Of a stretch of 12,547 nucleotides of DNA, positions 6,001 to 12,000 are shown piece after piece. Made by a program: the position numbers. The stretch is from a virus (taxonomy: Duplodnaviria; Heunggongvirae; Uroviricota; Caudoviricetes), in IMG/VR virus record IMGVR_UViG_2681813268_000016, positions 1-12,547 of that record; one strand, given 5' to 3'. Position 1 is the first letter of the stretch. Each line of letters starts with the position of its first letter.

Positions 6001-9000
6001 TCTCCCTCAACATGCAATAAAAAAGAGTTTTCAGCGGTTTTTGTCATGACATCAACCCAATTCTTAATACCAGGAATCTCGGTTACTGGACAACTCATAT
6101 CCCAATAACCAGCCTGTTCCCACGTTAAAACGGGCAACCGGGCGATGTTGTCACTAATGTAAGGGTACTGATTCAGACGCAGATCATCGGCTTTATCGTG
6201 ACCGTCCTTTCCATAAAGAATCCATTCAGGAGATTTGGAAAGCAATTTTGACAGTAGATACAAATTCTCACCGTCAGGTTTTGAAGAGCCATTTTCCCAT
6301 TTTGTTACGGATACACGAGATATGCCGATTGCTTTCGCAACCTGCTGTTGGGTTAATCCAACGTCTTTTCGACGATTCCGAATACGTTCGCTGATAGTGT
6401 TTTTCATGTAACCAATGTTACTACCAAGTGATGTTGCTATGGTTGACATTGTTATGTAACTATTGTTACCCTTCTGCTCGAAATAACAGGAGAGTTTTAT
6501 GTTCAAAGATGATGTTCTGCGCTATTTCAAAAAAAAGCGACTAGTAGCTGAGGCTCTTGGAATTTCACATGTGGCTGTTGTGCGGTGGAAAGCAGTTATT
6601 CCCAAACTTCGCGCAATGGAACTGGATGAAATTACTAACGGTGAATTGAAATACAACCCAGAACTTTACAAGAAGCAGGATAGCACCTCAAACGAAGGAA
6701 AGAATGATTCATGAAAATCAAGCATGAACACATCCGCATGGCGATGAATGTCTGGGCGCATCCGGACGGCGAAAAAGTGCCGGCTGCGAAAATTACCAAA
6801 GCGTATTTCGAGCTGGGAATGACGTTCCCGGAACTGTATGACGACAGCCATCCGGAAGCCCTGGCCCGTAATACCCAGAAAATTTTCCGTTGGCTGGATA
6901 AAGACACCCCTGATGCTGTTGAAAAAATGCAGGCTCTGTTACCGGCGATCGAAAAGGCGATGCCGCCTTTGCTGGTGGCCCGTATGCGCAGCCACAGTTC
7001 TGAATATTACCGTGAGATCGTCGAACGGAGGGATCGGCTGGTGAAGGATGTCGATGATTTTGTTGCGTCAGCGGTTGTTTTGTATGACCAGATGAATCGC
7101 GGCGGCCCGGCAGGGAATGCTGTGGTGATGCACTAAAAGCACGGTGTTCGGGGGTTTTATGAGCAGCAAGCTTCATGGTCTTGTCTGGGAAGGGTGCGCC
7201 TTCACCGGCATGATCTTATCCAGGGTGGCGGTTATGGCCCGTCTTGCAGACTACAGCAATGACGAGGGTGTGTCATGGCCTGCCATTGAAACTATCCGGC
7301 GTCAGATCGGTGCAAGAAGTGAATCCACAGTGAAATCGGCTATTGCAGAACTGGCGAAAGAGGGCTGGCTGACGAAGGAAGAGCGTAAGGTCGGTGGGCG
7401 TAATGTAAGCAATATCTATCGGCTTAATGTGGAAAAACTCGAAGCAGCTGCGGCGGCGGCGCGTGAGTCATATAAACCGAAAAGAAAAATTAGCCCGGCA
7501 AAAAATGACCCGTTAACAGTTGACCCGTCAAATATTGACCCCTCAACGGTTGACCCGTCAAATTTTGATGGATCAACTGTTGATAAAAAACTGCCGATTA
7601 GGGGGGCGATGATTGACCCCGATCCGTCAGTATTAAAACCTGATCCGTCAGATAAAAGATCTTCTTGTCCGGACGCTTCGCAACCGGACCCGCAGACGGC
7701 TGAACAGGATTTTTTAACCCGACACCCTGACGCGGTTGTGTTCAGTGCGAAAAAACGCCAGTGGGGAAGTCAGGAAGATTTGGTGTGCGCACAGTGGATC
7801 TGGGGACGAATCGTGAGTCTTTACGAGCAGGCGGCCAGCTATGATGGCGAGATCACTAGACCGAAAGAACCCAACTGGACAGCATGGGCCAATGACGTTC
7901 GCACAATGCGGATGCTGGATGGCAGAACTCACAGACAAATTTGTGAAATGTTTGGGCGTCTCCAGCGGGATTCGTTCTGGGTAAAAAACATCATGAGTCC
8001 GGCAAAACTCCGGGAAAAATGGGATGAACTGGTTATCCGCCTGGGGCGTTCGCCTGCGCAGCGTTGCGTGAATCACATTTCTGAACCGGACACTGAAATA
8101 CCGCCGGGATTCAGGGGGTGACGTGTCATGAAAAACATTGCGGCAGTTGGGGTTCTTGAACGTATTCGCAGACTTGCACCACAGGGGTCGGTTCCACCGT
8201 ACCGGACGGTGGAGGAGTGGCGGGAATGGCAACTTGCTGAAGGACGAAAACGCAGCGAGGAGATTAACCGCCAGAATCGCCAGTTGCGGGTGGAAAAAAT
8301 CCTGAATCGTTCGGGCATCCAGCCTCTGCACAGCAAATGCTCGTTTGCAAATTATCAGGTGCAGAACGACGGGCAAAAATACGCGCTGAGCCAGGCCAAA
8401 TCCATAGCTGACGAACTGATGACCGGGTGCACGAATTTTGTGTTCAGCGGTAAAACCGGCACCGGGAAAAATCACCTTGCAGCGGCGATGGGCAACCGGC
8501 TGATGGTGAAGGGGCGCAGCGTGATTATCGTCACCGTGTCTGACGTCATGAGCGTGTTGCATGACAGCTACGACAACGGCAAATCCGGGGAAAAATTTTT
8601 ACAGGAGCTTTGCGGGGTTGATTTGCTGGTCCTGGATGAAATAGGCATTCAGCGGGAGACGAAAAACGAGCAGGTGGTATTGCACCAGATAATTGATCGC
8701 CGGACAGCATCACTGTGCAGTGTCGGGATGTTAACAAACCTGAATCATGTCGCAATGAGTACGCTTCTTGGTGAGAGGATTATGGACCGCATGACCATGA
8801 ACGGTGGTCGATGGGTGACGTTTAACTGGGATAGCTGGCGTCCAAATGTCAGCAATATGAGGGTTGTGAAGTAATTTTGTCCGGAGGATATTTTAATGGA
8901 AACCGTATCTGACGCACTGAAAGCACTGAAAAAAGCCTCTTCACATGTGGTGGCAGCTCGCCTTGGAATCAGTCGTGAAGAGGCTGTCAACGAGCTGTGG

Positions 9001-12000
9001 GAACTCAAAAGAAATGGCGTCGTTGATAAAACTGGTCACACCTGGTTTCTGGCTGGCGAAGGTGAATCCCGGGTAACCGAAGAGCGGCCAGTAAAATCTG
9101 AAGCACAGGATATGCTGACCGGGGAGGTCGAACAAAAAGTTACCGCCGACATGATGATTGAGTTTATCGGTCAGGATGGGGCTAAAACGTGTGAGGAACT
9201 GGCGGGTAAGTTCGGTGTCAGTACTCGCAAGGTTGCTTCCACGCTGGCGGTGGTAACCGCAACGGGGCGGCTGGCACGCGTTAATCAGAACGGTAAATTT
9301 CGTTACTGCATGCCGGGCGATAATTTACCAGCAGAGCCGAAAGCCGCGCTGGTAACGGAAAGTGATGGTAAGGCCTTTCCTCAGCCAGCAGGTGCTGCGT
9401 TACCAGTCCGGGAAGCCGCAACACAGGAAGAAATTAAAACAGAAACTGTGGCGGACATTGTGCAGCCGTTGCCATCGTTTACCGAAACGCAAGCAGATGA
9501 GCTGATTTTTCAGTCCCTTCGCAGGGCAAACCTGGCGCTGCGCAGGGCGAAAAGTGATGTTCAGAAGTGGGAGCGAGTCTGCGCCGCGCTGCGGGAGCTG
9601 AACAAGCACCGGGATATTGTTCGACAGATTACTGATTCTTCCCGCCGTGTTGTATCGGAAAAGTGATTGCCGGAGGCGCTTATGGCAAAAGTATTTACAC
9701 AAGAAGAGCGGGAAAAAATTAAAGGGCTGATCGTGGAATTCGTACGCCTTAACGGACGAGGCACGATTCGGCAGTTATCGGATGAAATTGGTGTCAGTCA
9801 TGCGTCTGTCGGTCGTTTATGCATGGAGCTGGCCGCCAGTGGTGATGTTTACAATTCCGGTTACGGAGTATTCCCGTCTGAGCAGGCGCGCAAGGACTGG
9901 CAAAACGCCCGCAAAAAACTCTCAAGGGCAAAGCTGAAGAAACCATCTGTGGTTGATCCGGACCTTATCTGGCTATTACCAGACGGCGAAATACGCCGCT
10001 ACGACAGGCGCCTAAACATAATCTGTCGCGAGTGCCGGAAGAGTGAAGCTATGCAGCGTGTACTGGCTTTCTATCAGGGTAATTTTCAGGAGACGGTACT
10101 GTGAGTGAAATTAGCTATCAGGCTTCAATTACCGCTGGCATTCGCATCAAAGGAGAGGAGCATGGAAATAAAACCAGAAGATGAGTTAAGCAATATTGTT
10201 TTATTTCCGGTAAAAGAGGATAACCCTCGTAATCAGGTTAATTTTCTTTATGAGCCATCGGAAAGACCATATTGCCATCACGCTTCTGTCCGGGTTGACG
10301 AAAAAGAGCGTCAGGTCCGCTGTAAAATCTGCGGTGCGGTTGTGGAGCCGTTTGACTGGATGCTCTCTGTGGCAAAAAGAGAAACCAGACTGGCAGATGA
10401 TGTAAGGCTATTGCGCCAGGAGGAACAGGAAAGGCGGAAAAATATAGAAAAGTTAATTCAGATTGAGCGTAACGCGAAAGCGCGGATACGCAGGGCGACA
10501 AAATCCAGAACTGAATAATTAAATTTAGCACTGTAAATAAAATCAAATCCTTAACCGGAGGGATTTCTGCACCCTCAGAACATCAGGAGGCCGTCCGAAA
10601 GGGCGGTAGTGAAATGCGAAAATTCAAAATAATTATTGAAACGGGAATAGCCGGTGGAGATTTCGAGGATGAATTCGAAGTGGATGATGATGCAACACCA
10701 GATGAAATACAGGATGAAGCTAAAGATATTTTCTTTAACTACTGCAATTACTCATACCACGAAATAAAAGACGAAGAGGAAGAACAAAATGGCTGATTTT
10801 GGTTCAACTAAATATAACGCCAGTTTTGAAGAATGGCATGAACTGTTAATGGATTATGCAGAGTTACGCGGTGGAAGTGCCGCTGATGCTGAAGCATGGC
10901 GTGATGATTATGAAGCAGGGAAAACACCGGTCGAAGCATATTGTGATGAGTGGGGCGATGAATGAGCGAGATTAATTATCAGGAAGGGCATGAAAAGGCA
11001 GGGCAGGCAAAACCAGTGGCATGGCGATATCGCTACGTGAAAAAAGGCGTTACGGACTCTCAGGGGGAGCCGTGGGTTGGTGACTGGAAATATGTACCGA
11101 CAAAAGAGGATTGCAACGACAGGCCGAGCTATGAGATTCAGGTCTTATTCACTGTCCCGCCTGTGCCACTGACACCAGAAGGATTGATTAAAGCAGTGCG
11201 TTTCTATGAACAGGTAAAGCGTGAGAATCCGCCAGTCGAAACCGGAGCATGGAAAGACGCTGTTGACTGGGTGCTCAAAGAGGCTTACCAGGCTGTAAAC
11301 ATTGGTACCAAAGGAGATTGATATGACCACTTTTACCGACAAAGAACTGATTAAAGAAATCAAAGAGCGCATAGGCAGCTTGGACGTTCGAGACAATATT
11401 GAGCGCCGTGCTTATGAAATTGCTCTGGCATCGCTGGAAGCAGAGGCAGTTATGTTCTGTATATCAGGACAAAATGTAGATTCAGAAGAACATGTATCAA
11501 CCAGCAAAGCGGTTGTTGATGCCTGGGTTGAAGAATGGAATCAGGTTGACGGAAGTCCTGGCGAACCACTGTACAAAACTATGCCACTCTACTATCACGC
11601 TGCCTTGCCAGCGCCGGTAGTGCCGGAAGAAGCAACTCCGGAAAATGTAGAAATGCTCTCTGGCTATGTTTCCACGTACAAATTAACCGATAGCGAGCGC
11701 GATATTGCTGCCGAAATATGGAACGCCTGCCGCGCCGCTATGCTTCATGGGAAAGGAGAGTGATATGGCAACTTTAACAAAAAAAGAACGGGCATGGTTG
11801 AACGAATTACAGGACGTTCTTGATCGCTGCCCATCACCGAAAAAAATTGGTTTTTACACCATTGGCGATAAAAGCATTTACCTGTATGACCTGCGCCGCA
11901 TGGATGAAATCATGGAGGCTCTTGATAATCGTTCGTCGATGGATTGGTGTGTTGCTGTTCATGATATGAATGCAGGGTTTGATGAAAAGATTTTGTTCCC

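Follow-up and report, generated by a model that had tools for sequence, protein, structure and literature searches.

The stretch of DNA analysed here, 12,547 nucleotides from IMG/VR virus record IMGVR_UViG_2681813268_000016 (hereafter the window), covers the early region of a lambdoid (Rac/Qin-like) Escherichia coli prophage. Directly behind its DnaC-like loader gene lie three plus-strand genes, here called p1, p2 and p3, which together occupy positions 8896-10518 (Table 1). Profile searches of the three proteins returned DUF1627, DUF977 and a PHROG of unknown function, respectively, together with weak generic helix-turn-helix (HTH) matches in NCBIfam. An earlier reading of the sequence (the original prediction) had located the block in the slot that ren occupies in lambdoid phages, and both its position behind the loader and the assignment of the 140-aa p2 to the Ren family (PHROG 142) bear this out. 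It had also recognised none of the three as a characterised system; this holds insofar as no family with an established mechanism was matched, but the families themselves are catalogued and are present in most E. coli genomes.

The three genes are real, as had been claimed. Substitutions among homologues at codon positions 1/2/3 number 202/262/421 for p1, 76/89/218 for p2 and 98/46/384 for p3; because they pile up at the third position in all three, we regard p1, p2 and p3 as true coding genes. Moreover, a copy of the locus with 99.3% identity lies in an E. coli prophage next to potC, where RefSeq annotates the same three coding sequences. A GGAGG-type Shine-Dalgarno sequence precedes each open reading frame (ORF), again as predicted. 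The gap between p2 and p3 is the expected 57 nt, while that between p1 and p2 is 15 nt rather than 16 nt. For p3, the mechanical ORF call begins at GTG 10105, upstream of the ATG at 10162.

Table 1. Features of the p1-p2-p3 block, of its surroundings in the window and of distant DUF1627 loci. WH, winged helix; pLDDT, predicted local distance difference test score of the AlphaFold2 model; H, helix; E, strand.
Feature	Position	Strand	Details
p1 Shine-Dalgarno	8883-8887	+	GGAGG, 8 nt upstream of ATG 8896; read from sequence
p1	8896-9666	+	256 aa; DUF1627 / PHROG 630 / YdaW family
p1 WH domain 1 (predicted), aa 1-55	8896-9060	+	pLDDT 93-97; H4-11, H16-23, H27-39, E43-46, E49-52
p1 WH domain 2 (predicted), aa 83-142	9142-9321	+	pLDDT ~95; homologous to Ren-type WH
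p1 long basic C-terminal helix (predicted), aa 200-255	9493-9660	+	Helices 200-237 and 239-255, pLDDT ~90
p1-p2 junction	9667-9681	+	15 nt; Shine-Dalgarno GGAGG at 9672-9676
p2	9682-10104	+	140 aa from ATG; DUF977 / LygF / PHROG 142, Ren-like
p2 WH-type domain (putative), ~aa 9-62	9706-9867	+	Weak HTH_6, HTH_24, MarR_2 and GlpR matches; hhalign to p1 domain 2
Ren C-terminal motif in p2, aa 112-131	10015-10074	+	NIICRECRKSEAMQRVLAFY; BLASTP to lambda Ren
p3 Shine-Dalgarno	10152-10160	+	GGAGAGGAG; read from sequence
p3	10162-10518	+	118 aa from ATG; PHROG 1621, zinc ribbon + long helix
p3 zinc ribbon, aa 36-62	10267-10347	+	Predicted ligands C38, H40, C54, C57; AlphaFold2 strands 43-46, 51-54
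p3 single long helix, aa 63-117	10348-10512	+	Basic C-terminal end; pLDDT 84-94
Integrase	1-1119	-	ORF and profile searches
Excisionase-like gene			Next in order after integrase
823-aa protein			Left arm, after excisionase-like gene; C-terminal Rv2179c-like exonuclease domain
DUF1482 gene	3989-4174	-	Adjoins dicB/DicF
DicB homologue	4174-4464	-	PF05358, E 1.7e-37
DicF small RNA	4534-4585	-	Rfam RF00039, 72.5 bits vs gathering score 48
S24/HTH cI-type repressor	5733-6506	-	
P22-Cro-type gene	6499-6714		
YdaT-type gene, cII position	6711-7136	+	PF06254 'YdaT_toxin', E 2.8e-10
O-like initiator	7144-8121	+	Holds iteron array
Iteron array (probable)	7485-7583	+	Within O-like gene; about five 15-nt (or 2.5-3 30-nt) direct repeats, consensus CCCGTCAAATATTGA
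DnaC/IstB-type loader	8128-8874		
DUF7167 gene	10614-10796		Downstream of p3
58-aa gene	10789-10965		Downstream of p3
119-aa gene	10962-11321		Downstream of p3
DUF1627-partner locus L261	1526-4864		DUF1627 20-28% identity
DUF1627-partner locus L264	1352-4468		DUF1627 20-28% identity
DUF1627-partner locus L263	3501-4877		DUF1627 20-28% identity
DUF1627-partner locus L262	792-1789		DUF1627 20-28% identity

p1 matched Pfam DUF1627 (PF07789) over residues 91-245 with 324.1 bits (gathering cut-off 28.1) and PHROG 630 over residues 1-252 (E 2.1e-131), and its residues 1-154 share 55% identity with YdaW of E. coli K-12 (BLASTP, E 3e-55). By these matches p1 is a full-length homologue of the Rac prophage protein YdaW (b1361). 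YdaW likewise matches PHROG 630 and sits after a DnaC-like ydaV-type gene; unlike p1, it ends after the second WH domain, without the second linker and the C-terminal helix. Our initial assumption that YdaW was the homologue of p2 was rejected, since BLASTP puts it with p1. The family is a small one, with only 150 clusters reaching E <= 1e-3 in an exhaustive HMMER search through 1.84 billion cluster representatives. The alignment built from 34 diverse members (20-65% identity) is laid out as two conserved blocks, two variable Pro/Ala/Glu-rich linkers, an IPSFT motif and a C-terminal helix; R216 is invariant, and the IPSFT and EIRRTK motifs are conserved.

This alignment was the input to an AlphaFold2 model, in which both p1 domains are predicted to adopt the H-S-H-H-S-S (H1-S1-H2-H3-S2-S3) topology of the WH fold at pLDDT ~95. 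Residues 56-82 and 143-199 form disordered linkers in the model, and the C-terminal segment, which is absent from K-12 YdaW, carries a net charge of +6. Foldseek searches against the PDB superposed the domains on the WH domains of Z-alpha, FeoC, MarR and ArsR proteins with a root-mean-square deviation of 1-2 A over 55-63 residues, and the template modelling (TM) scores against single WH domains reached 0.84 relative to the target. The domain pair matched the tandem-WH proteins DIP2311, UFL1/DDRGK1, SelB, ScpB and ESCRT-II at E 3e-4 to 1e-2. Scaffolds such as ScpB, SelB (C-terminal WH2-4), ESCRT-II and UFL1/DDRGK1 resemble the pair by fold only, at 10-20% identity; unlike theirs, the modelled p1 domains are held by a disordered linker of ~27 residues and are not packed together. 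As far as the model goes, the likeness of p1 to solved tandem and single WH proteins is thus only a resemblance of fold and not family membership. At the sequence level, WH domain 1 gave weak HTH_Crp_2 and MntR profile matches.

p2 matched Pfam DUF977 (PF06163) across the whole profile (positions 1-134 of 134; 102.4 bits, cut-off 22.1) and PHROG 142, 'Ren-like exclusion protein', over residues 1-139 (E 3.6e-44). Lambda Ren itself (NP_040633, 96 aa) matches PHROG 142 at E 1.6e-41, which places p2 in the Ren family by profile. BLASTP aligned the C-terminal motif of p2 with Ren residues 73-92 (NLVFKECRQSAAMKRVLAVY) at 12/20 identical positions (60%, E 4e-7), and the pattern ECRxSxAMxRVLAxY is found in both. 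Moreover, both proteins have a predicted N-terminal WH-type domain and match PHROG 142 end to end, and both genes are located downstream of the replication genes within the early-right operon: ren follows P in lambda, p2 follows the loader and p1 in the window, and at loci without p1 it stands directly behind a DnaC-like or O-like gene. p2 differs from lambda Ren in being 44 residues longer, with a basic insert of ~45 residues separating the WH domain from the motif; beyond the motif itself, the similarity falls below BLASTP detection, and DUF977 gives no score for lambda Ren. The window also differs from lambda in that p1 parts p2 from the loader. From its matches, p2 is a Ren-family protein in which a basic insert links a WH domain to the Ren C-terminal motif. 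The gene is named LygF or Ren-like in phage records; no functional literature was found for 'LygF', and the name is a label only.

The original prediction held that p1 and p2 together contain three WH-like copies that arose by domain duplication. hhalign comparison of the two p1 domains (p1-N and p1-M) gave a probability of 92% (E 5.5e-7, 54 columns), that of p1-M with the p2 domain (p2-N) gave 83% (E 8.5e-6, 45 columns), and p1-N with p2-N gave a weak match in register (E 6e-3, 44 columns), as against control pairs with E 0.007 or worse and at most 14 aligned columns. In addition, PHROG 142 matched p1 residues 84-137 (E 5.6e-6), BLASTP detected p1 domain 2 against the p2 N-terminal domain (E 1.2e-5), and a G-[IV]-S...L...G pattern occurs in all three copies. 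The hhalign result and the PHROG 142 match, in agreement with the p1 model, therefore show that the domain-duplication reading was right. Since the second WH domain of p1 is homologous to the Ren-type WH domain, p1 is best read as an expanded Ren paralogue, and on these alignments it can be described as a Ren-type WH domain set within a larger tandem-WH protein.

A Pantoea prophage (L014, 2668-3189) encodes a 173-aa protein with the p1 N-terminal WH domain (PHROG 630 positions 1-55, E 1e-10) and, by eye, a p1-type C-terminal helix, without the middle (Ren-type) WH domain. The missing middle domain suggests that the second WH domain of DUF1627 was an insertion into a simpler ancestor.

Z-alpha domains, which bind Z-DNA or Z-RNA, were considered as relatives of these WH domains. 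ADAR1 and PKZ show their hallmarks: the recognition helix carries a conserved Asn and a conserved Tyr, and the wing a Trp. Sequence matches to Z-alpha entries in the PDB were marginal (E 0.0055, for the p2 domain against PKZ, and E 0.073) despite good fold superposition. Membership was rejected because p2 has Gly and Cys aligned to the Asn and Tyr of PKZ 'VNRHLYNL', so that the conserved pair is missing.

p3 belongs to PHROG 1621 (E 9.1e-56), a PHROG of unknown function, and matched no Pfam family above cut-off. All 150 of its homologues are from Enterobacterales prophages, none of them with a functional name. C38, H40, C54 and C57 are invariant in 31 diverse homologues, whereas H39 is variable; of the C-H-H..C-x2-C motif with a long basic helix proposed originally, these four residues and the helix stood and H39 did not. 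The same 31 sequences conserve an N-terminal TETExELSNVVxFP motif, and within the helix, which has a net charge of +6, LRxEExxRRxNIEKLIQIERNAKARIRR is near-invariant. The TFIIB zinc-ribbon profile (PF08271) scored 21.5 bits, below its cut-off of 29; the TFIIB ribbon was also the top structural match (Foldseek E 0.48), the S27e ribbon was likewise sub-threshold, and no significant fold match was found in the PDB or BFVD. Like TFIIB- and S27e-type ribbons, p3 residues 36-62 form a predicted two-strand ribbon with four metal ligands. Unlike TFIIB, with its two CxxC pairs, p3 has a C-x-H...C-x2-C ligand set, and its 55-residue helix is without a TFIIB counterpart. The conservation nevertheless supports a zinc ribbon of generic type, its four ligands being invariant. 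Assembly into a coiled-coil dimer is plausible, and p3 is probably a dimeric DNA- or protein-binding factor that acts alone. A 127-aa gene in locus L269 was rejected as a p3 homologue (hhalign probability 1.5%).

The block had been described as a three-gene operon. The genes do share a strand and are tightly spaced, but a promoter scan found no promoter-like site inside the block, and the sole terminator-like site in a terminator scan was a weak 5-bp stem within p2. Therefore, the block is part of a long early-right transcript rather than an operon of its own. Rfam identified no RNA element within 8896-10518, its matches (DicF and others) falling elsewhere in the window, and the repeats within the block are short and resemble chance or reflect the shared G-V-S turn.

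p1 and p2 lie in the same frame, split by a single TGA and 15 nt (9664-9684), and fused p1-p2 ORFs of 403 and 372 aa are present in metagenome data (P0122, P0124). The TGA + 15 nt + ATG junction is kept in most of 88 distinct p1-p2 pairs; 16-nt spacers, TGA-TAG and zero-spacer junctions also occur. Programmed readthrough from p1 into p2 was rejected, as these variants break or block the frame. The conserved 15-nt junction looks like a recombination joint.

The original prediction treated p1, p2 and p3 as a linked module and proposed co-occurrence across prophages as a check, and it is on this point that it failed: the genes occur apart and their alleles are uncorrelated. Among IMG/VR viral contigs, the best 80 loci per anchor gene were compared, a set biased to close relatives in which duplicates were kept. 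p2 adjoins p1 in all 76 p1-anchored loci with downstream DNA, and p1 stands without a recognisable p2 in three loci of the p3-anchored set. p1 is absent from ~35 of the 80 p2-anchored loci (~44%). p3 lies within 4 kb in 17/80 p1-anchored loci (adjacent in 5/80) and in 39/80 p2-anchored loci, often past inserts of 650-3176 bp; conversely, p2 is upstream of p3 in 71 of 80 p3-anchored loci. Parts of the block were matched in 4625 of 5426 complete E. coli genomes (85%) and all three genes in one joined match in 519 (~10%), most commonly with an insert of ~900 bp between p2 and p3. In 83 distinct p1-p2 pairs, identity of p1 to its window copy shows no correlation with that of p2 (r = -0.05), and alleles of the two genes reassort freely.

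p3 is an independently mobile accessory gene. In species-representative genomes of Erwinia, Yersinia, Photorhabdus, Phytobacter, Pantoea and others, it is found at the nin-region end, behind NinG-, RusA- or YbcO-like genes and directly upstream of Q-type antiterminators, often overlapping the upstream stop codon, with no p1 or p2 detectable nearby. A Klebsiella phage has the order NinG, p3, YlcG, Q, with one short gene between p3 and Q. p1, p2 and p3 are thus separate accessory genes of a pR-type transcript, not a dedicated three-component system.

p3 travels with the DUF7167 gene and the 58-aa gene that follow it in the window, and often with the 119-aa gene. The same string (p3-d1-d2) is found at 3001-4005 of L266 (ArgO145), in the early-left Ea22 region of Stx2a phages; because of this recurrence, it may be a small mobile cassette. 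E. coli-type p3 copies with 97% identity also occur on very short contigs assigned to a Collinsella sp. metagenome-assembled genome (L007) and to Ursidibacter maritimus (L012), and these probably reflect contamination or mis-binning rather than the real distribution.

DUF1627 genes, including distant members (20-31% identity), stand immediately behind the replication module irrespective of its loader, which is of DnaC type in the window and L269 and of lambda-P type in L271 and L274, with a DnaB-type helicase in L263. In the P2-like elements L261 and L264, DUF1627 instead follows an Exonuc_VIII (RecE-type) gene, with overlapping start and stop codons. The gene after these distant members was readable in eight cases: PHROG 2016 and/or PHROG 1001 in 4/8, and DUF1367, an unannotated small gene, an Rrf2-type WH gene and a DUF977 gene in 1/8 each; non-Ren genes other than the WH gene thus account for six of the eight. 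In L261, L264, L263 and L262 the follower is a 75-82-aa PHROG 1001 protein, sometimes with a PHROG 2016 protein between, a partnership that recurs.

Three leads bear on what p1 and p2 might do. Relief of RexAB exclusion is the phenotype that defines ren, and Toothman and Herskowitz reportedly described this relief by lambda ren in 1980. The pR transcript carries ren along with O and P, and two-hybrid assays detected interactions of the Rex proteins with O and Ren (bioRxiv 10.1101/2021.04.19.439022). For YdaW, the sole functional lead comes from the retron-Sen2 study, in which RecE is a trigger of the retron and the neighbouring racC a blocker, and in which ydaW is listed among prophage genes that block RcaT toxicity in an overexpression screen (bioRxiv 10.1101/2020.06.22.160242). 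The DUF1627 genes that overlap the ends of RecE-type genes in P2-like elements fit the trigger-blocker logic of that study. In addition, the WH domains have net charges of 0 to +2, compared with +6 for the C-terminal segments, a pattern less typical of operator-binding repressors. Based on the Ren genetics, the ydaW screen and this charge pattern, we therefore favour, with a probability of about 0.4, the hypothesis that p1 and p2 block abortive infection in the manner of Ren. By analogy, they would keep the phage replication or recombination machinery from triggering abortive infection by the host or resident prophages. Rather than repressing at operators in the classical way, they would act by binding through WH domains that are near neutral and C-terminal segments that are basic, and their genes would be sited directly behind those that generate the trigger.

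Several points weigh against this hypothesis. We know of no established mechanism for Ren itself, and the proposed function rests on analogy with Ren and YdaW. The overlap of p2 with Ren consists of family membership and a 20-residue motif only, with the ~45-residue insert in addition. The ydaW lead is a single entry of an overexpression screen, reported in a preprint and obtained with a truncated protein. Furthermore, WH domains most often bind DNA, which leaves room for a replication or regulatory role, and a position beside replication genes is equally expected of a replication accessory.

It is accordingly conceivable, if on balance unlikely, that p1 and p2 are accessory WH proteins of replication, which would bind the origin, the O-like initiator or the loader complex and tune initiation or the late switch. 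Both genes are invariably found just downstream of the replication module, the window has an iteron array within its O-like gene, and the tandem-WH matches of p1 include ScpB and other nucleic-acid or complex scaffolds. Thomason et al. also described ren as 'likely involved in DNA replication', alongside the Rex interactions with O and Ren (bioRxiv 10.1101/2021.04.19.439022). However, DUF1627 occurs beside three unrelated loader types, and in P2-like elements it follows an exonuclease gene at least 2 kb from the GPA replication gene. Both genes are dispensable in related phages, where p2 can be present in the absence of p1 and many lambdoids lack the pair altogether, and neither P-lethality nor replicative killing requires Ren (PMC3640518). 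Nor are the WH domains basic.

A role as sequence-specific transcription regulators or prophage anti-repressors would agree with the modelled WH fold, with the weak MarR-, ArsR-, DeoR-, Crp-, MntR- and TrmB-type HTH profile matches and with the p1 C-terminal helix as a possible dimerisation element. We nevertheless consider it improbable: every HTH match falls below its family cut-off, no promoter-like site or operator-like repeat was found near the genes, few basic residues lie on the recognition helices, and the long disordered linkers of p1 are unusual for compact repressors. The immunity region, moreover, already has cI-, Cro- and YdaT-type regulators. Finally, the view of the original prediction that p1, p2 and p3 form one exclusion, defence or anti-defence module, to which their tight spacing on one strand, the 519 joined matches in E. 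coli and the frequent position of p2 upstream of p3 would lend themselves, is largely refuted by the distribution and retains very little probability, given p3 at nin-region ends and in the Ea22 region, the inserts that often part p2 from p3, the many p2 loci without p1, the uncorrelated alleles and the lack of a significant PADLOC match. PADLOC-DB v2 returned no credible defence match (best E 6.7e-4 to 0.03, to HTH parts of Csa3/CARF or a methyltransferase model), a result that is uninformative on an anti-defence role since PADLOC holds no anti-defence models.

The block is ordinary, widespread prophage content. The p1, p2 and p3 proteins are 99-100% identical to sequences already public and all fall in catalogued families; parts of the block are very common in E. 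coli, including Stx-phage relatives, and no gene has a demonstrated mechanism. Cataloguing the trio as a new three-gene defence or anti-defence system is therefore unwarranted, the trio having been shown not to be a system. The value added is in annotation, namely the DUF1627 architecture, the connection of this family with the Ren-type WH domain and its constant siting behind replication genes or RecE. Together, the tandem WH domains, the second of them related to the Ren-type WH domain, the ren slot whatever the loader and the position after RecE-like genes in P2-like elements turn anonymous DUFs into a testable hypothesis of Ren-type protection from abortive infection.

A broader version of the favoured hypothesis is that DUF1627/YdaW and Ren/DUF977 form one superfamily of WH abortive-infection blockers placed immediately behind trigger genes, and we hold this to be doubtful. 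The triggers would be replication initiators or loaders in lambdoid phages and the RecE-type exonuclease in P2-like phages, and the WH domains would decoy or directly inhibit sensors or toxins, for example RexA or the retron toxin RcaT. If true, it would provide a general mechanism for the 45-year-old ren phenotype, and p3 would count as one more moron, independent of these, with a counter-defence or regulatory role.

Elsewhere in the window, the left arm encodes an 823-aa exonuclease, for which identity with RecE was rejected because its domain is Rv2179c-like and not Exonuc_VIII; consequently, the window contains no RecE/YdaW trigger-blocker pair. No rexAB is seen in this prophage. In the cII position, the window encodes a YdaT-type protein, not a lambda-CII-type activator. 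Within the O-like gene, the direct repeats at 7485-7583 encode a DPSxxDPS peptide repeat and are probably the origin iterons, as in lambda O; a weak Rfam 'mir-250' match at 7515-7581 is probably an artefact of the same array. In the early-left arm, DicF, DicB and DUF1482 make up a Qin/Rac-type cell-division-inhibition module, and a sub-threshold STnc100-like Rfam match lies at 4382-4522 on the minus strand.

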